Positions 5,809 to 63,774 of a stretch of DNA of 64,000 nt are shown piece by piece. Both the position numbers and the translations under genes were made by a program. Position 1 is the first letter of the stretch, and each line of letters begins with the position of its first letter. Source of the stretch: Gemmatimonadales bacterium. Its GTDB lineage: Bacteria; Gemmatimonadota; Gemmatimonadetes; Gemmatimonadales; GWC2-71-9. The DNA lies in contig JBFXAS010000001.1 in assembly GCA_050184075.1 (NCBI GenBank), positions 32,013-96,012 on the forward strand, read 5' to 3'. Below the pieces are notes generated by a model, which saw nothing but the letters and a program-made list of their open reading frames with translations, was not told the origin of the DNA and made no database searches.

Positions 5809-7746
5809 ATGGCAAGAGAAACCGAGCTCACCGTACGCGGGCTCATCCTCGGCGCCGTCATCGCGGCGGTCTTCACCGCGGCCAACGTCTTTCTCGGTCT
5901 TCGCGTCGGACTGACGATCGCCTCGTCGATTCCGGCGGCCGTGATCTCGATGGGCGTGCTCCGTGCCCTGCGGACCGGCACCATCAAGGAGAACAACATC
6001 GTTCAGACGGTGGCCTCGGCGGGCGGGACGCTTTCGGCCATCATCTTCGTATTGCCCGGGCTGGTCATGGTGGGATGGTGGCAGGGGTTCCCGTTCCTCC
6101 AGACCTTCCTGGTCTGCTCCCTGGGCGGCATCCTCGGCGTGCTGTTCTCGATTCCGCTCCGCCGGGCGCTGGTGGTCAACTCCGACCTGCCCTTTCCCGA
6201 GGGCGTCGCGGCCGCCGAGGTTCTGAAGGCGGGGGCGACCGGGGACGAGGCGTCACCCGACGCGATCGAGCGGACGCGCGGCCCGATCGTGGTGCTGGTC
6301 GGGGCGCTCACGGCGGCGGCCACGCAGATCGTGAGCTTCACCGGCCTCGCCGCGTCGGGAGTCGCGCAGTTCTTCCGCCTGGGCTCGGGCGCGACCGGCG
6401 TCCACCTGGGCTACTCCCTCGCGCTCCTCGGCGCCGGCCACCTGGTCGGCATCTCCGTGGGCATGGCCATGCTGCTGGGCCTGATCATCGCCTGGGGGGT
6501 GGCGACGCCGCTGTTGAGCGCCGGCCTCCCGGGCGCGACGGCCGAGGTGGCGATGACCGTCTGGGCCACGAAGGTGCGCTTCATCGGCGCCGGCGCGATC
6601 GGCGTGGCCGCGATCTGGAGCCTGCTCAAGCTGATTCGCCCGGTCACCGCCGGAATCATCGCGACCGCCAAGGCGGGCGCGGCCGCGCGCGCTGGCCACG
6701 AGCGCGATCGCGACATTTCTCTCGGCGTGATCGTGGGGCTCTCGACCGGATGCCTGATCCTGATCGCCTGGCTGCTCCGCGACTTCATCGGCCAGGGCCC
6801 GCTCGGATCGCTCGGGTGGCCGCTCGCGCTCGGCGGCGTGTTCTTTACCCTGCTGATCGGCGCGTTCGTGGCCACGGTCGCGGGCTACATGGCGGGCCTG
6901 ATCGGCGCCTCGAACAGCCCGGTCTCGGGCATCGGGATCCTGGCGACGGTGGCCGCGGCCGTGCTGCTCGCCGTCTTCGTCCAGCCCCGGCTCGACGCCG
7001 CCGCCACGGAGTCGCTGGTGGCGTTCGCGCTTTTCGGCGTGGCCGTGGTCTTCTCGATCGCCACGATCTCCAACGACAACCTCCAGGACCTCAAGACCGG
7101 TCAGCTGGTCGGGGCCTCGCCCTGGCGCCAACAGGCCGCGCTGATCGTCGGCGTGATCGCCGGCTCGCTGGTCATTCCGCCGATCCTCGACCTCTTGAAC
7201 CACGCCTACGGCTTCCCCGGCGACCCCAACCGCGCCGCCATCGCGGCCGACCCGCTTCCGGCGCCGCAGGCCGCGCTGATCTCCACCCTCGCGCGCGGCG
7301 TGCTCAACGCGGAGCTGGACTGGGGATTGATCCGAATCGGGGCCCTGGTCGGGCTCGGTGCCATCGTCCTGGACGAGATGCTCGGCGTGCTGAAGCTGCT
7401 CAGGCTCTCGCCGCTCGCGATCGGCATCGGCATCTACCTGCCGATGGACGCGACCCAGCCCGTGATCGTCGGGGCGATGATCGGGTGGCTCTACGACCGG
7501 ACCATGCGGGCCAGGCCGAACGGCGAGATGGCCATCCGCTTCGGCGTGTTGCTCGCCTCCGGTCTGATCGTGGGCGAGAGTCTGCTCGGCGTGCTGAACG
7601 CCGGGCTGATCGTCGCGACCGGCAACGCGGCGCCGCTCGCGCTCGTGGGGCCGGAGTTCGCCGGGATGTCGCGCCTGGTCGGCGCGCTCATCTTCGTCGT
7701 GGCGGTGATCGGAACCTATCGCTGGGTGGCGCGCCAGTCGACCTGA
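5809..7746 (+). CDS. OPT family oligopeptide transporter
   Basis: 645 aa and polytopic. N-terminus ELTVRGLILGAVIAAVFTAANVFLGLRVGLTIASSIPAAVISMG is typical of the OPT superfamily. Confidence 0.85.
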   Translation: MARETELTVRGLILGAVIAAVFTAANVFLGLRVGLTIASSIPAAVISMGVLRALRTGTIKENNIVQTVASAGGTLSAIIFVLPGLVMVGWWQGFPFLQTFLVCSLGGILGVLFSIPLRRALVVNSDLPFPEGVAAAEVLKAGATGDEASPDAIERTRGPIVVLVGALTAAATQIVSFTGLAASGVAQFFRLGSGATGVHLGYSLALLGAGHLVGISVGMAMLLGLIIAWGVATPLLSAGLPGATAEVAMTVWATKVRFIGAGAIGVAAIWSLLKLIRPVTAGIIATAKAGAAARAGHERDRDISLGVIVGLSTGCLILIAWLLRDFIGQGPLGSLGWPLALGGVFFTLLIGAFVATVAGYMAGLIGASNSPVSGIGILATVAAAVLLAVFVQPRLDAAATESLVAFALFGVAVVFSIATISNDNLQDLKTGQLVGASPWRQQAALIVGVIAGSLVIPPILDLLNHAYGFPGDPNRAAIAADPLPAPQAALISTLARGVLNAELDWGLIRIGALVGLGAIVLDEMLGVLKLLRLSPLAIGIGIYLPMDATQPVIVGAMIGWLYDRTMRARPNGEMAIRFGVLLASGLIVGESLLGVLNAGLIVATGNAAPLALVGPEFAGMSRLVGALIFVVAVIGTYRWVARQST

Positions 7747-7788: not shown

Positions 7789-9003
7789 CTACTCGTAGCG
7801 GAGCGCCTCGATCGGGTCGAGCCGAGCCGCGCGGCGCGCCGGCCAGACCCCGAAGAAGAGACCGACGACCACGCTGAACAGCACGGCGAGGCCGATCGCC
7901 TCCGGGGGCACGGTCGTCGTCCAGCCGTTCAGGCTCGACAGCATCGCGGCGGCACCGACCCCGAGCGCGATCCCGGCGGCGCCGCCCACCAGGCAGAGCG
8001 TCAGCGCCTCGAGCAGGAACTGGTAGAGCACCTGGCGGCGGGTGGCGCCCAGGGCCTTTCGGACTCCGATCTCCCTGGTCCGCTCGGTGACCGACACCAG
8101 CATGATATTCATGATCCCGATCCCGCCCACGATCAAGCTCACCGTGGCGATGCCCGCGAGCAGGTAGGTGAGCGTCGCGCTCGCCTCGGCCCGCGCGGTG
8201 AGGAAGCTCGACCGATCGCGGATCCGGAAGTCGTTCTCCTGGTCCGGTCGGAGGCGGTGCTCGCGGCGGAGGATGCCCTCGATCTCGAGGATGGCGGCAT
8301 CCATCGAGTCCGGATTCGCCAGCTGCACGGTGATCCCGCTCACCCGGTCGCTGCCGAAGATCCGGAACTCGCCGGTCCGGAAGGGGATGTAGATGGTCTC
8401 GTCGGGATCCTCGCGTCCGGGCTGGTCGCCCTTGCGGTCGAGCACCCCGATCACCTCGAAGGGAATCCCGCGGATCGAGATCGACTGCCCGACCAGCTCC
8501 TCGGGCGGGACCTCGAGCTGGTCCGGCACCTCCTCGCCCACCACCGCCACGCGGCGCCGCGCCTGGTCCTCGCCGGCGGTAAAGCTCCGGCCGAGTCGGA
8601 CCGGCAGCCGATGCACGTCGACGAAGGCCGCCGTGGTGGCGGAGACTTCGAGGTTGAGGTTCTGGTTGCCGAGCTTGACCTGGAGATCGTTTTGGATCGC
8701 GGGCACCACGGCGGAGAGCCGGGTCGCGTCGCGCTCGAGGGCGTGCGCGTCGTCCGTGGTCAGATTGACCCGCTCCGCCCGGGCGACGCCCCGCCAGTAG
8801 GACTGGCCGGCCGAGATCGAGAGCAGGTCGGTGCCGAGCGCCTCGAGCTGCTCGTTCACCGCGGCCTGCGCCCCGCTGCCCAGCGCCACCATGGTGATCA
8901 CGGCGGCGACGCCGATCACGATCCCCAGCGTGGTGAGCAGCGAGCGGAGCTTGGTCGCCCGGATCGCCTCGATCGCGACCCGCAAGATCTCGAGGGTGCT
9001 CAT
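7789..9003 (-). CDS. MacB-like ABC transporter permease (FtsX/MacB periplasmic domain), no fused ATPase
   Basis: MSTLEILRVAIEAIRATKLRSLLTTLGIVIGVAAVITMVALG... and C-terminal FtsX-type helices (TREIGVRKALGATRRQV). ATG 9003 overlaps the adaptor stop (ATGA). Confidence 0.85.
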   Translation of the reverse strand: MSTLEILRVAIEAIRATKLRSLLTTLGIVIGVAAVITMVALGSGAQAAVNEQLEALGTDLLSISAGQSYWRGVARAERVNLTTDDAHALERDATRLSAVVPAIQNDLQVKLGNQNLNLEVSATTAAFVDVHRLPVRLGRSFTAGEDQARRRVAVVGEEVPDQLEVPPEELVGQSISIRGIPFEVIGVLDRKGDQPGREDPDETIYIPFRTGEFRIFGSDRVSGITVQLANPDSMDAAILEIEGILRREHRLRPDQENDFRIRDRSSFLTARAEASATLTYLLAGIATVSLIVGGIGIMNIMLVSVTERTREIGVRKALGATRRQVLYQFLLEALTLCLVGGAAGIALGVGAAAMLSSLNGWTTTVPPEAIGLAVLFSVVVGLFFGVWPARRAARLDPIEALRYE

Positions 9004-10265
9004 CGGTTGGTTCGCCCCAGCGGGCCGCCGACCCGCTCGCGCACCCACTGCTCGCGCTCCTGCTGCTCTTCGAGGAGACCCGAGGTCGGGAGAATCAGGA
9101 CACTGTCGCCCACCTCGAGCCCGGCGAGCACGGCGGTGTAGTCGAAGTCGGTGAGTCCGGCCCGCACCGCCACCGGCCGGGGCTGCCCGTTCTCCACCAC
9201 GAAGGCGACGTAGCGTCGGATCGCCGTGCCCGCCTCGCCCTCGCTCACGTCGTCGCCGCCGAGCTCGGAGACCGGCTCGCCCCCTCTCGTCCGGAAGGCG
9301 GAACCCGCCTCCTCCGAAAGGCCGAGCATCTCGAGCGCGACGGGCAGGTCCTCGAACGGACGGAGGGCCGCGTTGGGCACCGCCACCGCGTCGCCCACCT
9401 CGCCGATGTGAACCTCGACCTCGGCGTTCATTCCGGGACGGAGGAGATGCTCCTGATTCGCGATCCGGGCGAGCACCGGGAACATCGTCACGTTCTGGTC
9501 GACCACGGCCTCGGCCCCGACCCGGAGCACCTCGCCCCGAAAGGGCCGATTGGGAAAGGCGGCCACCTGGATCGTCACCGGGAGGCCGGGCTCGACCATG
9601 CCGATGTCGGTCTCGTCCACCAGCGCGCGGATCTGCACGGTGTCGAGCGTGGCCATCCGGAGCAGCACGGCGCCGCCGCCGACGTCACGGCTCGCCGAGG
9701 CGATCACCGAGCCGACCTCGACGCTCCGGCCGAGAATCACTCCATCGGACGGGGCGCGGACCTCGGTATCCTCGTAGGCGATCTTGGCGTCCTCGAGCGC
9801 GCGGCGGGCCCGAACCAGCGCCGCGTAGGCGGTGGCCCGGTTGAGCCTGGCCTGCTCGAACTCGAGCTCCGTGATGGCCTGCGACTCCCGCAGGGCGGCG
9901 GAACGCTCCAGCTGGGCTTCGGCGTTGTCGAGCTCCGCGCGCGCCACCACCGAGTCGGCCTCGGCCTGCACCACCGCGTTGCTCGGAATCCGCGGATCGA
10001 CCCGGACCAGCAGGTCGCCCTGGCGGACCGGGTCGCCCTCTTCGACCTCGACCTCGATGATCTCGCCCGAGGCCTTCGACTTGACCTCGACGGTGGTGAT
10101 CGGCTCGATCACGCCCGCGGCCACGGCGCTCACCACGATGTCGCGCCTGGTGACCTCGACCAGACGTCCCAACGAGTGCTGCTCCTCCGGCGTCCGACAG
10201 CCTGCGACGAACACACCGAGCGCCACCGCCAGGCAACCGGCAGCACGCGGAGTGATTCGGATCAT
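9000..10265 (-). CDS. Efflux periplasmic adaptor subunit (HlyD/MacA family), lipoprotein
   Basis: Start MIRITPRAAGCLAVALGVFVAGC (lipobox, GGAGAGG SD). Contains a coiled-coil hairpin (AELDNAEAQLERS...) and beta-barrel segments typical of membrane fusion proteins. Confidence 0.85.
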   Translation of the reverse strand: MIRITPRAAGCLAVALGVFVAGCRTPEEQHSLGRLVEVTRRDIVVSAVAAGVIEPITTVEVKSKASGEIIEVEVEEGDPVRQGDLLVRVDPRIPSNAVVQAEADSVVARAELDNAEAQLERSAALRESQAITELEFEQARLNRATAYAALVRARRALEDAKIAYEDTEVRAPSDGVILGRSVEVGSVIASASRDVGGGAVLLRMATLDTVQIRALVDETDIGMVEPGLPVTIQVAAFPNRPFRGEVLRVGAEAVVDQNVTMFPVLARIANQEHLLRPGMNAEVEVHIGEVGDAVAVPNAALRPFEDLPVALEMLGLSEEAGSAFRTRGGEPVSELGGDDVSEGEAGTAIRRYVAFVVENGQPRPVAVRAGLTDFDYTAVLAGLEVGDSVLILPTSGLLEEQQEREQWVRERVGGPLGRTNR

Positions 10266-56565: not shown

Positions 56566-57600
56566 CTAACGTCGTTGCTCCTTGACCCGCACCACCTGAC
56601 CTCTGGCGATGCCCTGGCCGTCGACGATCCGCGCCGTGCTGTACTGCTCCAGCACCCGCTCCACGACCACGGCGCCCACCCGGGTCTCGGGCGCGCCAAG
56701 CGACTTGCCGGTCGCGGGATCCACCAACGCCTCGCCGGCCTCGAACACCTCCAGCTCCAGCCCGGGCTTCATCCCGTCGGCCAGGGCGGCGTTGAGGTAG
56801 ACCACCTCGTCGCGGACGTCGGCCACCCGGCCGCTCCAGCGGATCCGAGGCATCCCCGTGAGGATCGAGATCACCGCGTTCTGAATCGCCTGGCGGGAGG
56901 CGTGCCCGAGCGGCGTGGTCAGCTGGCCGTCGACGGAGTAGCTCTTTTCGTCCCGGATCAGATCGGCCGCGATGCCGGTCTGGCTGGCCTTGCCGGTGCC
57001 TTTGGCGGAGTAGACCACCTCGCCGGTCGACGCGTCGATCAGACGGAGGTCGATCACCACCGAGGCACTGACCCGCTCGGTCGCGACCGAGAGGCCTCGC
57101 ACGACGTTGGTGAGCGCCCCGCCGACGCTCGATTTCTCGAAGGTGAAGCCGGTGATGTCTCCCGTGATCAGCACCTGGGCGCCGAGCAAGGCGCCGGAGG
57201 CCGCTGCGGTCTCCACGGTCACCCGGCCGCCCGCGGTCAGGGCCTGTTCCTGCTCCACCTGACTCATCGCGGCTCGCTCCAGCACCGTGAATCGACCGGT
57301 CCGGATCAGCACCGAGGTCAGCATCTCGGTCAGGCCCCGGGCGAACTCGGTCGGGGGCGGGATCGCGATCGCCACTGTGGTCTGCTGCGCCTGGCCCGGT
57401 TGGGCGTAGGGCTGCGCGGCCGGCGGCACGGCCATCGGCATCTGGGTGGTCTGGATGCGGAGGGCGCTCCCCGACAGGTCCAGCACCGCCACCCGGAGCC
57501 TCGCCCCGACCTCGGCCTGGGCCGGGAGCGCCGCGGGCCGGAGCGCGAGAGCGAGCGCGCCGAGCGCCCCTGCCACCCGACCGAGCGAGCCACCAAACAT
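56566..57600 (-). CDS. CsgG-family (curli-type secretion pore-like) protein with C-terminal extension
   Basis: Signal peptide without Cys. RLRVAVLDLSG...LTEMLTSVLIRTGRFTVLERAAMSQVEQEQAL...GAQVLITGDITGF...VVIDLRLIDASTGEVVYSAKG follows the CsgG-family pattern. An extra about 90-aa beta-rich C-terminus (RVADVRDEVVYLNAALADGMKPGLELEVF...). Confidence 0.7.
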   Translation of the reverse strand: MFGGSLGRVAGALGALALALRPAALPAQAEVGARLRVAVLDLSGSALRIQTTQMPMAVPPAAQPYAQPGQAQQTTVAIAIPPPTEFARGLTEMLTSVLIRTGRFTVLERAAMSQVEQEQALTAGGRVTVETAAASGALLGAQVLITGDITGFTFEKSSVGGALTNVVRGLSVATERVSASVVIDLRLIDASTGEVVYSAKGTGKASQTGIAADLIRDEKSYSVDGQLTTPLGHASRQAIQNAVISILTGMPRIRWSGRVADVRDEVVYLNAALADGMKPGLELEVFEAGEALVDPATGKSLGAPETRVGAVVVERVLEQYSTARIVDGQGIARGQVVRVKEQRR

Positions 57601-57603
57601 TGC

Positions 57604-58527
57604 CTAACGCTCCTGCTCGGGTGCGGGCTTGGCGAGAATCTCCACCCGGGCGTCGCCGAGCTTGGGGAGCTTCCGCTCGGGATCGAGACCGGGTGGCTCG
57701 CTCCGGAGCTCCAACCGGCCCTCGATGCCGGCCATCGCGAGGTGAGCCGACAGCTTGGTGAGGCGCCGCCGGGCCATCGCGGTATCCGGCGGCGACTTGC
57801 CGTTCGACTCCGGCGGGAGGTTCAAGACAAACTCGCCGTCGAGTGACTGGAGCGCCTCGGCCAGGAAGGCGAAGCTCTCGGTGACGTCGTGCTTGAGCGC
57901 GTCGCTCGCTCCGACGAACCGAACCGCCTTGAGCTCGAGCCGGCCCTCGGAGAGGTCTTCGATCATGCTCTCGGCCGTCTGACCCTTGCCGAAGAGACCG
58001 CCGAGAGCCTTCACCCCCTTGGCCGCGACCGGGGCCGCCCCGACCGCCAAGCCGACCGGCGTCACCGCCGCCACCGCACCGATCGCCGAGGCGGCTCCGG
58101 GGGTGGTTCCTGGCACCACCTGGCCGCCGGACGCGGCCTGCGCGGCAGCTTGAGCCTGCATCGCCGCGACCATCGCCTGTTGCCCGGCGAGCGAGGAGTC
58201 CGGAACGCACGTCGGCGCCGGCGCACCGGCCGTGGAAGGCCGCTCGGCCCCTCCGAGCGCCTTCTTCACTTGCCCGACCGCAGCCGTGCCGACGGTCGCC
58301 GACCCGGCGGCCGTGGTGCCGACGGGACACTCGCCGGCGCTGAGCCGCAGCGCTCCCGTACCGAGCGCCGAGTCGACCACCGCCGCCGCGGTCTGGGCGG
58401 CGGCCGTGTCGATGGCCGTGGTCACCGCCCCCTTGAGTCGTTTGGCGAGCGTCGCCTTGGGTTGCTGCGCCGAGAGTCCCGGGACAGCCAGCGTGAGCAT
58501 CGTCAGCACCAAGCATGGAGTTGTCAT
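57604..58527 (-). CDS. Secreted Ala/Gly-rich protein with degenerate OmpA-C-like C-terminal domain
   Basis: Start MTTPCLVLTMLTLAVPGLSAQ with a GGAGGGTGAG SD. An alternative ATG at 58566 overlaps the upstream stop. About 150 aa of A/G/T/V low complexity, then EGRLELKAVRFVGASDAL...ARRRLTKLSAHLAMAGI...GDARVEIL. Confidence 0.6.
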   Translation of the reverse strand: MTTPCLVLTMLTLAVPGLSAQQPKATLAKRLKGAVTTAIDTAAAQTAAAVVDSALGTGALRLSAGECPVGTTAAGSATVGTAAVGQVKKALGGAERPSTAGAPAPTCVPDSSLAGQQAMVAAMQAQAAAQAASGGQVVPGTTPGAASAIGAVAAVTPVGLAVGAAPVAAKGVKALGGLFGKGQTAESMIEDLSEGRLELKAVRFVGASDALKHDVTESFAFLAEALQSLDGEFVLNLPPESNGKSPPDTAMARRRLTKLSAHLAMAGIEGRLELRSEPPGLDPERKLPKLGDARVEILAKPAPEQER

Positions 58528-58562
58528 CGCTCTCACCCTCCAGTGGGTTTCTTGCGGTGTCG

Positions 58563-59003
58563 TCATTCGATTCGAAGCAGCTCGATCCGGGCGTCCCCGG
58601 GCCGTACCGCCCGGATCTCCCGAGAGGCAAGCCTGGCCGCCTCGACCGGGCCGACGAGGTGGGCGGGGTTCGAGCCGGCGGCGAGCAGCGCCCGGTAGGC
58701 GGTGAAGGAGCGCCGCCGGCTCAGCACCGTGTCGGCCGGCAACGAGGGCGTCAGCTCGGCAGGCACGTAGACCGCGAACTTTCCCTGGCTACGGTTCAGA
58801 GCGCGGGCTGCCTGCTCGAGCAGGGCCTCGTACCCCTGGGCCAGGTGGTCGTCGGTTTGCCTGAAGCGGACCCGGTCCAGCACCAGCCGGCCCTCCGCCA
58901 GGCGGGTCACCATCGTCTCGATCGAAGGCAGCTGATGGGCTCGACCCCCGGTCGGAGCCACCAGTCCAACGCTCGCGATCCACGCCATCGCCCACCCGAC
59001 CAT
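58563..59003 (-). CDS. Small paralogue of the degenerate OmpA-C-like domain protein
   Basis: ATG 59003 is preceded by AGGGAGGACCG. MVGWAMAWIASVGLVAPTGG..., then EGRLVLDRVRFRQTDDHL...SRRRSFTAYRALLAAG...GDARIELL, colinear with the C-terminus of the next gene. The longer start at 59066 would leave no room for a promoter. Confidence 0.55.
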   Translation of the reverse strand: MVGWAMAWIASVGLVAPTGGRAHQLPSIETMVTRLAEGRLVLDRVRFRQTDDHLAQGYEALLEQAARALNRSQGKFAVYVPAELTPSLPADTVLSRRRSFTAYRALLAAGSNPAHLVGPVEAARLASREIRAVRPGDARIELLRIE

Positions 59004-59060
59004 CGGTCCTCCCTGCCAGGCTCGCTGGCCTCCGGCACGGCGGCTATCTTGGGTCAGCGC

Positions 59061-59102
59061 GCTCACTGCCTGATCAGGCTTCGATCATCTCCCGATCAAA
59101 CC
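59061..59102 (-). promoter_or_regulatory. TGATC direct repeats at 11-bp phase (3 exact + 1 degenerate), oriented toward the CsgG-like operon
   Basis: Minus strand: TT TGATCG GGAGA TGATCG AAGCC TGATCA GGCAG TGAGCG. T positions are 59098, 59087, 59076, 59065. Includes the perfect palindrome CCTGATCAGG (59069-59078). Confidence 0.5.
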
Positions 59103-59111
59103 CCACGCAAC

Positions 59112-61910
59112 GTGTTCAGGATCAACCTGTTCGGCGGACTGTCGGTGGCCAGGGACGGGAGCCCGGTCGAGGGCCTCCCCTCCCGCAGGGCCGCCCTCCT
59201 GGCGGCCCTGGCGATCGCCGGCCGGCGGGGCTTGAGCAGGGATCGCCTCCTCTTGTTCCTCTGGCCGGACGCGACGGAAGAGCGGGCCCGGCATTCGCTG
59301 GCCCAGTCGGTGTACAGCCTCCACAAGCTCCTCGGCCAGGAAATCGTCGAATCCGGCGCTCAAGAGCTCCGGCTGGCCGAGTCGTTGGCGGAGTCCGATC
59401 TCGCGGAGTTCTTCGAGGCTCACGCCCGGGGCGACTGGGGAACGGCGGCGGCCCTCTATCGAGGCCCGCTGCTGGACGGCTTTCTCCTTGCCGATGCCTC
59501 GGAGTTCGACACCTGGGTCAGCGCAGAGCGGGCCAGGGTCGAGGGGCTGGCCCGCGACGCCATCGAGGCGGATGCGCGCCAGGCCGACGAGTCGGGAGAC
59601 CCCCTGGCCGCTTCGCGGTGGCGACGGCTGGTCGAGCTCGACCCCCTGACCTCTCGCTACGCCATCGGCTATGCCAGGGCCCTGACCCGCTCCGCCGATC
59701 CAGGAAGCGCCGTCCGCCACCTCCGCGAGCACATCCGGTTGCTCAAGAACGAGCTCAACCTCCCTGCCCCCGCCGAGGTGTCCGCGCTGATCAGCGAGTT
59801 GACCCGGCGCGCGCAACCGGAACCGCCGCGCCGGGTAGCGGCGGAGGACCCGGGCGGGCCGGCCGAGGCCGTGGACCCGATGGCGACGCCCGCGGCGATC
59901 GCCGGCGAGGCGGAGTCCATCGCCCCCGAGCCAACCGAGCCCCGCGCGCCGCCGATCCCCACCCCCGCGCTCCCTGCCAGGACCCGGCGTTGGCTGATTC
60001 CCGCGACCCTGGTGGTCGCGGGCGCTCTCGCCGTCGGCTGGACCTGGTGGATCCGACAGCCCGCCCGGGCGGTCACCGGAGGCGCACGAGTGGTCCTCAC
60101 CGACGTCGAGAACTTGACCAGCGACTCGACCCTCGGCCGGGCAATGACCGCCGCGTTCCAGGCCGGCCTGGCGCAGGCCGGGAACTTTTCCCTCTATCCG
60201 CGGGCCCGACTCAGGGCGACACTGGCCCGAATGGGGCGTGCCATCACCGACACCACCCTCAGCGAGTCACTGGCGCGAGAGGTCGCGGCCCGCGAAGCGG
60301 GTCAGGCGGTGGTCTCGGTAGCGGTCGTGGAGGTCGGAGATCGTTTCGACCTGAGCGGACGGATCGTCGATCCCGCGAGCGGTCAGACCCTCGCGGCCCG
60401 CCGAATCGCCGTGAGCGGCCGGGCCGGTCTGCTCGACGCGGCCGGCACGCTCACCGCCTGGATCCGCCAGAAGCTGGGCGACCTCCGCTGGGACACCGGG
60501 CCGCCGCTGCCGCTGGTGACGACCAGCTCGCTGCCGGCGCTCGAGGCCGTCGGCGGCGCGTTCATTGCCTATCAGGACTTCGAGTTCGCCAAGGCTCGCG
60601 CGCTGCTCGAGCATGCCTTCGCGCTCGACACCGGGTTCGCCTGGGCCCAGGCGATGCTCGGCAACCACCACCTGCTCGTCAACAACGTGCCCGAGGCCTT
60701 GCGCTGGCTGCGCGAGGCCGATCGGCGCGCCGCGCGACTCACCGAGCCGGAGCAGCTTCAGGTCAGGACGCTGCTCGCCCGGGCCGAGGGGCGCTACGAC
60801 GCCATGGCCGACTACGCCGCCACCTTGGCCGACCGCTTTCCCTCCTCGCCCAACTGGGCGCTCTACGGAGGGGCCCTGCGGTTCGCCAACCGGGACCCGG
60901 AGGCGGTGACCGCGTTTCGGCGCGCCCTGGCGATCGACTCGAACGACCTCGATGCCTATCACGGTTTGGCGTTGGCCCAAAGGGCCGTGGGCAACTACCG
61001 GGAAGCGCTCGACGCTTTCGCGGCGATCGATCGGCGCGACTCGACCTTTCTGCTGGCGATCTTCTACAACCAGCAATGGGGCGAGACCTACGTACTCACC
61101 GGCGACTTGGCGGGTGCCGATTCGGTATTCAGGCGAATGCTGACCCGCCCTCGAAACGGAGACCGGGCCCGCGGACATCGCGCGCTGGCCTACCTCGCGC
61201 TCTACCAGGGGCGGTTTCGAGAAGCGACCCACCAGCTCCGAGCCGCGATTCAGCTCCAGGACCCCGGCAGCCTCTCCGAATACCGCGACCAGCTGCTGCT
61301 GGCGGACGTATCCCGTACCCTCGGCGACCGCCGGGTCGCGGACGCGGCGCTCGACCGGGCCCTCGCGATCTTCCACACCGCCAATATCCAGGCGGCGGCC
61401 GTGATGTTCGGCGGGCACCAGCTCGTCCGGGCCGGTCGTCTCGAGCAGGCCTCGCTCTTCCTCGACTCCCTGGCGACCCGAGCCCGGCTCCGGCCGGAGT
61501 CGGAGCAGGACCAGGCGGCCCTGGCGATCCTGCGCGGGGATCTCGCGCTCGCCCGCCGACGACCGGCGGACGCCCGCCAGGCGCTCGATCGACGCGACTT
61601 CGAGGCCTACGACGCACTCGGGTTCCAGCTCCGCGCCGAGACGTTCGAGGCCCTTGGTCCGCCCGACTCGGCCCTGGCGATGGCCCGGCTGGCCACCGAG
61701 CGTTTCCGCTTCGGCCTCGAGGTCCAGACCGACTGGCTGCGAAGCTTCGAGACCCTGGGCCGCGTGGCGGAGGCGGCCGGAGACCAGGCGACGGCCCGCG
61801 AGGCCTGGTCGAAGCTGATCGAGCTCTGGAAGAACGCCGACCCCGACCTCCCACCCCTGCTCCGGGCGCGGCAAGAGTTGGCCCGCCTTCAGGCCGAAGC
61901 CAACCGTTGA
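59112..61910 (+). CDS. Membrane-anchored SARP-type regulator: OmpR-like wHTH + BTAD, one TM helix, extracytoplasmic domain + TPR repeats
   Basis: GTG start gives MFRINLFGGLSVARDGSPVEGLPSRRAALLAALAIAGRRGLSRDRLLLFLWPD (wHTH). ...AALYRGPLLDGFLLADASEFDTWVSAERARV... (BTAD). TM helix WLIPATLVVAGALAVGWTWWI (about 59991-60053). The C-terminal about 470 aa are TPR-like (AYHGLALAQRAVGNYREALDAFAAI...). Confidence 0.8.
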   Translation: MFRINLFGGLSVARDGSPVEGLPSRRAALLAALAIAGRRGLSRDRLLLFLWPDATEERARHSLAQSVYSLHKLLGQEIVESGAQELRLAESLAESDLAEFFEAHARGDWGTAAALYRGPLLDGFLLADASEFDTWVSAERARVEGLARDAIEADARQADESGDPLAASRWRRLVELDPLTSRYAIGYARALTRSADPGSAVRHLREHIRLLKNELNLPAPAEVSALISELTRRAQPEPPRRVAAEDPGGPAEAVDPMATPAAIAGEAESIAPEPTEPRAPPIPTPALPARTRRWLIPATLVVAGALAVGWTWWIRQPARAVTGGARVVLTDVENLTSDSTLGRAMTAAFQAGLAQAGNFSLYPRARLRATLARMGRAITDTTLSESLAREVAAREAGQAVVSVAVVEVGDRFDLSGRIVDPASGQTLAARRIAVSGRAGLLDAAGTLTAWIRQKLGDLRWDTGPPLPLVTTSSLPALEAVGGAFIAYQDFEFAKARALLEHAFALDTGFAWAQAMLGNHHLLVNNVPEALRWLREADRRAARLTEPEQLQVRTLLARAEGRYDAMADYAATLADRFPSSPNWALYGGALRFANRDPEAVTAFRRALAIDSNDLDAYHGLALAQRAVGNYREALDAFAAIDRRDSTFLLAIFYNQQWGETYVLTGDLAGADSVFRRMLTRPRNGDRARGHRALAYLALYQGRFREATHQLRAAIQLQDPGSLSEYRDQLLLADVSRTLGDRRVADAALDRALAIFHTANIQAAAVMFGGHQLVRAGRLEQASLFLDSLATRARLRPESEQDQAALAILRGDLALARRRPADARQALDRRDFEAYDALGFQLRAETFEALGPPDSALAMARLATERFRFGLEVQTDWLRSFETLGRVAEAAGDQATAREAWSKLIELWKNADPDLPPLLRARQELARLQAEANR

Positions 61911-61932
61911 CCCGGTCTTCGCTTGCACCCGG

Positions 61933-61976
61933 TGATCAGGGCGTGATCCCGCGCTGACCGAGATCTGATCGGACCG
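61933..61976 (+). promoter_or_regulatory. Four TGAYC direct repeats at 11-bp phase upstream of the triple-repeat protein gene
   Basis: Plus strand: TGATCA GGGCG TGATCC CGCGC TGACCG AGATC TGATCG GACC. T positions are 61933, 61944, 61955, 61966. Lies in the 103-bp gap between the regulator stop and ATG 62014. Confidence 0.5.
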
Positions 61977-62013
61977 CCGCAGCTTGGCCCCGTCCATCGA
62001 ATGGTCAGGGTCC

Positions 62014-63774
62014 ATGACAGTCCGGCAGATACTCGCTCCCCTCGCGGTCGCCGTCAGCCTGAGCTCCGGCGGGCTGGCGGCTCAAGCCTCGCGCACCTTC
62101 AAGTTCTCGTTCACCGTGAAGCACACCGCGCCGTCCTCGCAGCAGCCCCACCCCTTGGTGTCGTTGAGTGTGGATCCCGGAAGGAAGTTGGTCGGTGGAG
62201 GCGGCTTCGCGGACTGGCGCGGAGCCGGCAGCTTGCTCGATCGCCTGCGCCCCGTCGGGCTCGCCTGGGAAGCCGGCTCGAAGGATCATGCCTTTCAGGA
62301 CCCGACGGCGCTCACCGGCTATCTGGTGCAGCTCGACGATCCGGCCAGCCTCTACGCGGTCACCGTGGTCGAAGCGGTGAGCCCCCCGAGCAGCCGTCCG
62401 ACGGTGCAGGCGGTGCTGCCCCCGGGCTTCGTCCTGACTGGCGGCGGGTGTTGGGCGGACTGGCGGTCGACCGGGGGGGCGGGCCTCCTGCTGACCGGCT
62501 CCTACCCGGACGAGGTCACCCAGCGGGCCTGGATCTGCGAGGCGAAGGACCATCTCGTCCCGAGCCCCGGGGCGCTCCGCGCCTATGTGATCGGGATGCG
62601 CGCGCTGACCGGCGCCCAGCCGGTCGTGGCCATCACCAAGGCAACCAGCGCGATCGGGGCGGCGCCGGTCGCGCGGGCGAATGTGGCCCCGTACTTCGAG
62701 GTGACCGGCGGCGGCGCCCGGGCCGAGGTGTGGCGCGGGGCCACGCTCGCGAGGTCGGGAGCCACGAACACCATGGCCGCTCCGAGCCGGACGGCCGCAC
62801 GGCTGCAAGCGGCGGCGGACAGCGGAGTCCTGCTCACCGCGTCCTTTCCCATCATGGGAACCGGAACGGCGAGAGTCGCCGTCGGTTGGGAGGCCCGCGC
62901 CAAGGATCACGGCGTCTCGAGCCCCGGAACGGTCACCGCCTACGTGATCGGGGTGAAGCTGCCGCCGCCTCCGTCGTCGTCCTCAACGCCTCCAACCGGC
63001 TCGGGCCCCGCGACCTGCGCCTGCGCGAGCACCGGGCCCTTCAGTGCGGCCGCGCCGGGATCGATCAGTGGCGGTCTCCAGGGGAGCTTCATCCACCCGA
63101 CCGACGGCGGCTTCACGGTCGCCGTTCAGTCGCTGAGCGGCGCGCCTCACCTGTCGATGACCAACGCGCAAGGTCAGTCCGTGCTCGACCTGACCGGTGT
63201 CGTGGCCTGGGGGCCGAGCCCCGATGGCCGATTCTTCGCCGTGGTGGCGTCGCCCGCCGGAACCAATGCCGGGAGTCCGATCACCGTCTATCGGGTCGCG
63301 CGGAGCACGACGCCGCTCCGCAGCGTCGTGTCCTCCCAGATCTGGCCCGACGGACGATGGGGCTGGAGCCCCGATGGCAGCGTGCTGCTGATCGAGCGCT
63401 TCGAGAATGCTCCGGTTCGCTATTCCCTGGAGTCCTACAACCTGCTCGCCGCCAATCCCACGCTGGCCGTGCTCCGAACCCAGGAGCTGTCCGCCTTCGG
63501 CCCGAGCGTCACCATGAGTCCCTGCGGTGATCGCTTGATGTACAGCCGCTGGCTCCAGCTCAACCCGCGTCAGGGCCAGCTCGATTTCTTCGCGCGGAAG
63601 GACTTCCCCTCGTCGCTCTCCGTCATCGCCGACTGGGACGGAGCCGCGGGTGCGATGAGCGCCAGCGTCGTCGCCGGCACCGGCACCAACGTCTATCTCG
63701 TCAGGCTCGCCGGAGCGAGGCTCCGGTCCAACGGGCAGACCACTTTCCCCAGTCGGCAGTGCGAAGCGCCGTGA
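62014..63774 (+). CDS. Secreted protein: three tandem copies of an unrecognised about 90-120-aa domain, P/S linker, C-terminal PD40/TolB-like beta-propeller repeats
   Basis: Signal peptide MTVRQILAPLAVAVSLSSGGLAAQA. Repeat motifs are ...GGG..(A)(D/E)(V)W...LL..S.P...W.A..KDH...P..L..Y(V/L)(I/V). PPPPSSSSTPPTGSGP linker. SPDGRFFAVVAS, WSPDGSVLLIERF and MSPCGDRLMYSRW in the C-terminal part. Confidence 0.7.
   Translation: MTVRQILAPLAVAVSLSSGGLAAQASRTFKFSFTVKHTAPSSQQPHPLVSLSVDPGRKLVGGGGFADWRGAGSLLDRLRPVGLAWEAGSKDHAFQDPTALTGYLVQLDDPASLYAVTVVEAVSPPSSRPTVQAVLPPGFVLTGGGCWADWRSTGGAGLLLTGSYPDEVTQRAWICEAKDHLVPSPGALRAYVIGMRALTGAQPVVAITKATSAIGAAPVARANVAPYFEVTGGGARAEVWRGATLARSGATNTMAAPSRTAARLQAAADSGVLLTASFPIMGTGTARVAVGWEARAKDHGVSSPGTVTAYVIGVKLPPPPSSSSTPPTGSGPATCACASTGPFSAAAPGSISGGLQGSFIHPTDGGFTVAVQSLSGAPHLSMTNAQGQSVLDLTGVVAWGPSPDGRFFAVVASPAGTNAGSPITVYRVARSTTPLRSVVSSQIWPDGRWGWSPDGSVLLIERFENAPVRYSLESYNLLAANPTLAVLRTQELSAFGPSVTMSPCGDRLMYSRWLQLNPRQGQLDFFARKDFPSSLSVIADWDGAAGAMSASVVAGTGTNVYLVRLAGARLRSNGQTTFPSRQCEAP

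Follow-up and report, generated by a model that had tools for sequence, protein, structure and literature searches.

Gene organization at the locus

Within the window, by which we mean the whole 64-kb stretch of DNA analysed (G+C content 70.5%, from a Gemmatimonadales metagenome-assembled genome), a gene for a SARP-like regulator is flanked by two short arrays of TGAYC repeats (Table 1). The array that is the subject of this study lies between the regulator gene and a gene for a secreted protein with three repeats (the triple-repeat protein). The other, referred to below as the sister array, separates the regulator gene from a divergent operon of three genes. Searches of Pfam and NCBIfam found no family for the first two products of this operon. 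The order of the operon (150-aa protein, 300-aa protein, CsgG) is kept beside orthologues of the regulator. The trio may represent an uncharacterised envelope or secretion module.

Table 1. Genes and sequence elements at the locus, with positions counted from the first nucleotide of the window.
Feature	Position	Strand	Remarks
Divergent three-gene operon	56566..59003	-	Operon at which the sister array is oriented
CsgG-like lipoprotein	57600-56566	-	Third gene of divergent operon
320-aa secreted protein	58566-57604	-	Second gene of divergent operon
146-aa protein	59003-58563	-	First gene of divergent operon
CAAGAT, -10-like hexamer of sister array	59046..59051	-	9 nt beyond proximal unit
Sister array	59061..59098	-	TGATC 59098, TGATC 59087, TGATC 59076, TGAGC 59065 (positions of T); conserved in L055, L057, L148 and L191
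932-aa SARP-like regulator	59112..61910	+	GTG start; same length as NCBI's P0001; candidate binder
Unit 1 (distal), TGATC	61933..61937	+	Predicted at about -59 to -55
Unit 2, TGATC	61944..61948	+	Predicted at about -48 to -44
Unit 3, TGACC	61955..61959	+	Predicted at about -37 to -33, the place of a -35 element
Unit 4 (proximal), TGATC	61966..61970	+	Predicted at about -26 to -22, within the spacer
CAGCTT, -10-like hexamer (nAnnnT)	61980..61985	+	9 nt past unit 4; putative -10
586-aa secreted protein, target gene	62014..63774	+	Signal peptide, three repeats of ~95 aa, beta-rich C-terminal half

The triple-repeat protein received no match in either Pfam or NCBIfam. Its three N-terminal repeats were modelled with high confidence and have a fold like that of the V domain of PCSK9 and the APC-beta domain of apicomplexan perforin, which is consistent with the sequence homology of the protein to domains of bacterial MACPF proteins; the model of the C-terminal half is of low confidence. 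NCBI's version of the gene, which initiates at an internal TTG and yields 513 aa, is probably too short, orthologues and signal peptide both favouring the ATG listed in Table 1. The gene is not conserved 3' of the regulator orthologues in L055, L056 and L057. In L055, a stretch of 874 bp 3' of the regulator orthologue (8763-9635) is devoid of called genes.

The plus strand from 61932 to 61976 reads directly as G TGATCAGGGCG TGATCCCGCGC TGACCGAGATC TGATCGGACC. A preliminary description of this DNA had recognized four TGAYC units here in 11-bp phase, and both the reading of the sequence and pattern counts agree with it, down to the positions of the four T's (61933, 61944, 61955 and 61966). The 8-mer TGATCAGG of the first unit is part of a perfect palindrome at 59069-59078, CCTGATCAGG, as had been noted, and the distance from the end of the array to the ATG, previously put at about 40 nt, is 38 nt when counted from 61976. 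Pattern counts also bear out the claim that motif and phase are alike on the two sides of the regulator gene: the sequence TGAYC-N6-TGAYC-N6-TGAYC matches three times in the 64-kb window, always inside one of the two arrays, and no pair of TGAYC sites 11 bp apart is found elsewhere in the window. The three-unit pattern was absent from 100 dinucleotide-preserving shuffles. When periods of 6 to 24 were scanned across the window, one further chain of three TGAYC sites appeared, unrelated and with a period of 12.

From the frequency of TGAYC in the window (243 sites on the plus strand and 221 on the minus strand), 1.3e-5 chains of four and 2.6e-3 chains of three are calculated to arise by chance. 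A rarity-weighted test that was open to any 5-mer at periods 8-14, and hence motif-agnostic, did not mark the array as exceptional within this one window (score of 1.4e-3 versus a null median minimum of 1.1e-3), since at 70% GC chains of 5-mers rich in G and C occur often. The in-window statistics are indecisive given the post-hoc choice of the motif; weight was therefore placed on the second array and, above all, on conservation.

In its TGAYC orientation the sister array belongs to the minus strand and points at the CsgG-like operon, not at the regulator gene. The earlier statement that the orientation of each array matches the adjacent operon stands as made for the array at 61933; for the upstream array it holds with respect to the divergent minus-strand operon. 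The distal end of the sister array is 13 nt from the regulator's GTG, and across four loci the corresponding gap measures 10-14 nt and includes a conserved CAA just 5' of the start codon. The plus strand over the sister hexamer reads TATCTT, which makes the strand assignment of this hexamer ambiguous; read toward the regulator, the hexamer is conserved (TATCTT, TAGTTT, TAGCTT and TACTCT, or TAnnnT), and is thus -10-like on both strands. The regulator's own promoter was not located, the 10-14 nt between array and start codon containing no -10-like element.

Conservation and anatomy of the repeat element

All five orthologues of the triple-repeat protein (42-71% identity) are preceded by four or five in-phase TGA units, followed after 9 nt by a hexamer of the form nAnnnT. 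The units and hexamers read TGATC TGATC TGACC TGAAG and CACTTT (L064); TGATC TGACC TGACC TGATA and CATCCT (L065); TGATC TGACT TGATC TGATG and AAAGTT (L066); TGATC TGACC TGACC TGATC and CAGATT (L067); and, with five units, TGATG TGATC TGATG TGATC TGAGC and CAGGTT (L068). Unit 3 is reported as TGACC or TGATC in every orthologous promoter. The distance from hexamer to ATG is 27-29 nt in the window and at its four closest orthologues (L064, L065, L066 and L067), and 64 nt in L068. The preliminary description had regarded the array as compatible with repeats overlapping a -35 region ahead of a short leader; the fixed offset of the hexamer and its position 27-29 nt 5' of the ATG accord with this suggestion. 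The gene neighbourhoods of the five orthologues are unrelated to one another and lack an adjacent regulator; the 5' neighbour, where one is called, usually lies on the opposite strand. Simple co-transcription of the target gene with the regulator, named beforehand as the result that would overturn the proposal, is argued against by these loci, in which box and hexamer precede orthologues with an opposite-strand neighbour and no regulator. Orthologues of both the triple-repeat protein and the regulator are present in the SRR326751xx sample series.

A second line of conservation comes from the homologues of the regulator. Divergent four-unit arrays with the same offset are found beside the orthologues in L055 (55% identity; hexamer TAAACT) and L057 (49%; TAAGCT). 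The locus of a more distant homologue (~40%; L191), chosen before its DNA was inspected, has TGATC TGATG TGACG TGACG, 9 nt and CAAGCT, facing a divergent gene. A three-unit version with hexamer stands 5' of a lipoprotein gene at the locus of the distant homologue P0012 (L061). When metagenomes were scanned with the DNA pattern only, at least two of the ~16 high-GC, non-tandem matches listed proved to lie directly beside regulator homologues: in L148 the array starts 14 nt from the regulator GTG and faces a divergent gene for a secreted protein, and in L082 the order is regulator, array, OmpA-family gene. Altogether, arrays of at least three units occur beside, or within a few kb of, seven of the eight SARP-like regulator loci examined. 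The exception is L060 (38% homologue), whose degenerate series (TGATC, AGATT, TGGTT, TGACG), with a different hexamer spacing, was not counted. Automatic gene calls give several of these homologues wrong starts (5973 in L055, 3349 in L057, 6001 in L060 and 5001 in L191), and starts were placed by alignment at 6024, 3436, 5905 and about 4934, respectively.

Other matches from the scan deserve mention in their own right. Most of the low-GC matches listed were plain 11-mer tandem repeats and were discarded. Arrays of four TGAYC units with the same geometry precede genes for Spond_N-like secreted proteins on three lower-GC contigs (L085, L136 and L137). In L093 (11966-12150) and L111 (minus strand, base 835 of the reverse complement), four TGATC units are followed by a shared leader of ~90 nt, GGAGGCTCGCCGCGAT...GCTCACTCCT.CGGCAGGCTTCCTCCTCGA..., which has the appearance of a conserved structured RNA and matches no Rfam family at gathering score.

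The specificity of the association was assessed in 788 kb of fetched sequence, in which the pattern TGA-N8 x4 occurs, on both strands, only at these arrays, 0.03 matches being expected. Loci of paralogues sharing the regulator's sensor module (see below) served as a negative control; no such array was found in 54 control loci (613 kb), 46 of which encode Ser/Thr kinases with this module. The earlier judgement that the arrays are hard to ascribe to chance thus finds its main support in conservation at orthologous promoters, with 0.03 chance matches expected. That the array should reflect only chance or base composition and serve no particular protein, or should be a cluster of GATC sites for Dam-type methylation, is scarcely credible. 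GATC is contained in three of the four units and is abundant in the 64-kb window (758 sites, ~4 times the ~176 calculated from base composition), but the core of the units is TGA, and units reading TGACC, TGAGC, TGAAG or TGATG keep the phase without a GATC. With GATC not a conserved element of every unit, the methylation cluster is effectively refuted. A tandem repeat or iteron array was likewise rejected: the whole units, spacers included, are not alike, and TRF reported no tandem repeat at the array.

Alignment of the arrays yields the consensus [TGAYC-N6]x4-N3-nAnnnT. The 11-bp phase is exact in every array examined, and the repeats are direct, not inverted. The conserved core is TGA; at position 4 of the unit, T predominates (30 of 44 units, with 9 C, 3 G and 2 A). 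Among the nine aligned arrays whose distal unit was not imposed by the search, that unit is TGATC in eight and TGATT in one, and it is again TGATC in L191; the proximal unit (TGAnn) is the most degenerate across arrays. Spacer columns carry ~0-0.7 bits and are not conserved. In the ten arrays whose hexamer was not imposed by the search, the hexamer begins at a distance of exactly 14 nt from the T of the last unit, and in all arrays the A at its second position and the T at its sixth are invariant at this exact offset. The offset amounts to 9 nt if counted from the 5-mer, to 7 nt from a 7-mer, and to 8 nt if a heptamer is taken to begin one base earlier. From its position and the invariance of A2 and T6, the hexamer is a putative -10 element. 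A sigma-70 scan of 58500-62500 returned no promoter.

The repeats might instead work in RNA, with read-through from the regulator gene producing a transcript on which they serve as leader, attenuator or terminator. The terminator scan found none between regulator and target, so that the region may be transcribed and read-through may add to expression of the target gene. Several observations nevertheless make an RNA-level role for the array very unlikely. The folding energy of the array region is no better than that of shuffled sequences (z = 0.08), and no Rfam family matches in the gap; the orthologous arrays lie in divergent intergenic regions without a co-oriented gene on their 5' side; and a phase of 11 bp reflects the geometry of duplex DNA.

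The SARP-like regulator and a model of activation

The assignment of the regulator to the SARP type, made in the preliminary description, is upheld by a BTAD match, a winged-helix match to EmbR and the names given by JGI to its homologues. The winged helix (approximately residues 5-77) matches EmbR (2FEZ) with E = 9e-5; Pfam's Trans_reg_C gives no match in the regulator itself but does so in its homologues P0017 and P0028. The BTAD domain (PF03704; residues 102-230; 26.0 bits against a cut-off of 22.1 bits) follows directly. Next comes one hydrophobic segment (~296-315) with RTRR on its N-terminal side, the topology being predicted from the positive-inside rule only, and beyond this predicted transmembrane helix lie a TolB/CsgG-like region and TPR repeats. 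A Response_reg domain is absent from the regulator and no kinase gene is found in the conserved neighbourhood. Across seven regulators (38-57% identity) the putative recognition helix keeps the pattern ARHxLAQxxYS without exception, in line with a shared specificity for TGAYC.

The part of the regulator from about residue 295 to 932 (59990-61910) has 56-60% identity with the C-terminal region of Ser/Thr kinases (P0005-P0010); the model TIGR04510 ("peptide modification system cyclase") matches it as well. The occurrence of this part in both kinases and regulator suggests one sensor module joined to varied output domains. A genome scan with the regulator recovered no orthologues, only paralogues with the same C-terminal sensor at about 30% identity.

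In our assessment the array is likely to be a conserved activator-dependent promoter box, and the neighbouring SARP-like protein its most probable binder. The array would constitute the upstream half of such a promoter, whose anatomy would be [TGAYC-N6] x4, 3 more nt, (C/T)AnnnT, ~28 nt and ATG. With the transcription start predicted near 61992 and a leader of about 22 nt, the four units would share a face of the helix, at roughly -59, -48, -37 and -26, and the two proximal units would fill the -35 position and the spacer of a promoter with no usable -35. The binder would be an activator of the SARP family (OmpR-type winged helix plus BTAD), anchored to the inner membrane by one transmembrane helix and equipped with a periplasmic sensor made up of the TolB-like and TPR part. 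Protomers might bind side by side, one per unit, by analogy with AfsR-RNA polymerase structures, and those nearest the promoter would touch sigma region 4 and the core enzyme, enabling RNA polymerase to use a weak -10. Through the sister array, this protein would also control the divergent CsgG-like operon. The sister array abuts the start codon of the regulator, suggesting autoregulation.

It is unlikely that the boxes, although genuine activator sites, are bound by another protein of the OmpR/PhoB family, such as a response regulator encoded elsewhere, the adjacency of the SARP-like gene then being incidental or a matter of co-regulation. Throughout the OmpR/PhoB family, direct repeats of 11 bp commonly take the place of the -35, and the binder could be another winged-helix protein. 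In L085, moreover, four TGAYC units plus hexamer (618-670) precede Spond_N genes followed by a Trans_reg_C response regulator and a histidine kinase, an arrangement from which it follows that TGAYC arrays are not exclusive to the SARP-like subfamily; similar arrays in L136 and L137 occur on contigs without a SARP-like gene. Against a different binder are the recurrence of arrays of at least three units near seven of the eight SARP-like loci, including one blind pick and two found from DNA alone, the invariance of the recognition helix among the SARP-like regulators, and the fact that no response-regulator gene is conserved in the loci of the latter.

Alternatively, the neighbouring regulator might bind the boxes as a repressor, the units being operators on a constitutive promoter, across its -35 and spacer. 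The two proximal units do cover a region that RNA polymerase must occupy, boxes in such a place could act in repression no less than in activation, and the position of the sister array, between the conserved hexamer and the regulator start codon, is typical of negative autoregulation. However, no -35-like element stands at a workable spacing: taken as a -35, unit 3 would leave, by direct reading, a spacer of 20 bp, and unit 4 one of 9 bp, and the sigma-70 scan was negative. In addition, a fixed distance to the -10 and a single orientation of the repeats are hallmarks of SARP/PhoB activation (PMC10936776). Repression thus fits the geometry less well than activation, and we regard it as quite improbable.

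A broader scheme can be proposed tentatively, as a possibility to which we would give less than even weight: Gemmatimonadota may employ a hybrid signalling device, not described before, that combines a SARP module for DNA binding and activation, a ToxR-like topology, a periplasmic sensor interchangeable with that of Ser/Thr kinases, promoters with 4-5 TGAYC boxes and a small, conserved regulon of exported proteins that it would switch on. The protein would oligomerise on the in-phase TGAYC boxes and tether the promoters to the membrane. Its regulon would comprise the operon of the CsgG-like channel and the perforin-APC-beta/PCSK9-V-like beta-prism protein, and it is conceivable that the beta-prism protein is the cargo of the CsgG-like channel.

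To our knowledge, Gemmatimonadota lack any defined binding site for a transcription factor, and no SARP has been characterised outside the cytoplasm; a search of the searchable literature on membrane-anchored SARPs or Gemmatimonadota promoters found nothing relevant. Along with a precise, conserved cis-element, the present analysis provides a candidate for its regulator and two transcription units as its targets. The box could be used for regulon prediction in any Gemmatimonadales genome, and, through the -10-like element and the length of the leader, it may afford a first view of promoter architecture in Gemmatimonadota. If true, the model would mean that activation of the AfsR type extends to a protein tethered to the membrane, and would show a familiar promoter design in a phylum where gene regulation has scarcely been studied.

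Comparison with known activator systems

Judged by sequence, the element appears to be a direct-repeat box of the SARP/OmpR type, with a new core and more units than usual, in a new phylum and beside a regulator of an uncharacterised, membrane-anchored SARP architecture. Its closest counterparts are the SARP promoters of Streptomyces (among them the AfsR-bound afs box of afsS and the heptamer repeats recognised by ActII-ORF4, DnrI and PimR). As a rule, direct repeats in SARP promoters are spaced 11 or 22 bp apart, the 3' repeat being located 8 bp from the -10 (PMC10936776), and in the AfsR complex protomers lie side by side on a box that extends over the -35 and spacer, with contacts to sigma region 4 (PMC10936776). 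Here, the direct repeats are 11 bp apart, the inferred -10 follows at ~8 bp and there is no canonical -35. In both cases the repeats lie on the same strand, their 3' member stands ~8 bp from a weak -10, and the boxes cover the -35 and spacer of promoters with no good -35; in both, too, the regulators combine an OmpR-type winged helix with BTAD and are often encoded beside their targets. The differences concern the array, which has 4-5 units with a TGAYC core instead of the 2-3 units of Streptomyces promoters; the host, a member of Gemmatimonadota and not of Actinobacteria; the targets, exported proteins in place of a biosynthetic cluster; and the regulator itself, which is predicted to be membrane-anchored with a periplasmic TolB-like/TPR sensor, while the Streptomyces SARPs are cytoplasmic.

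The predicted topology, with an N-terminal cytoplasmic winged helix, one transmembrane helix and a periplasmic sensor, is that of ToxR, CadC and TcpP. ToxR occupies DNA near the -35 as several protomers in tandem, spaced by about one turn of the helix (PMC10629549). ToxR-like proteins, however, lack the BTAD domain found in the regulator, and no sequence relationship of the regulator to them was detected beyond the fold class. Moreover, ToxR reads DNA shape at AT-rich sites, both tandem and inverted, whereas the array described here has a sharp core and a strict single orientation.

Pho boxes and other sites of the OmpR/PhoB type resemble the array in that 11-bp direct-repeat units, bound head to tail, replace the -35. 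The proteins that bind them carry a receiver and work with a partner histidine kinase, both of which are missing from the present regulator; unlike in OmpR/PhoB pairs, the signal input would come from the regulator's own periplasmic domain.
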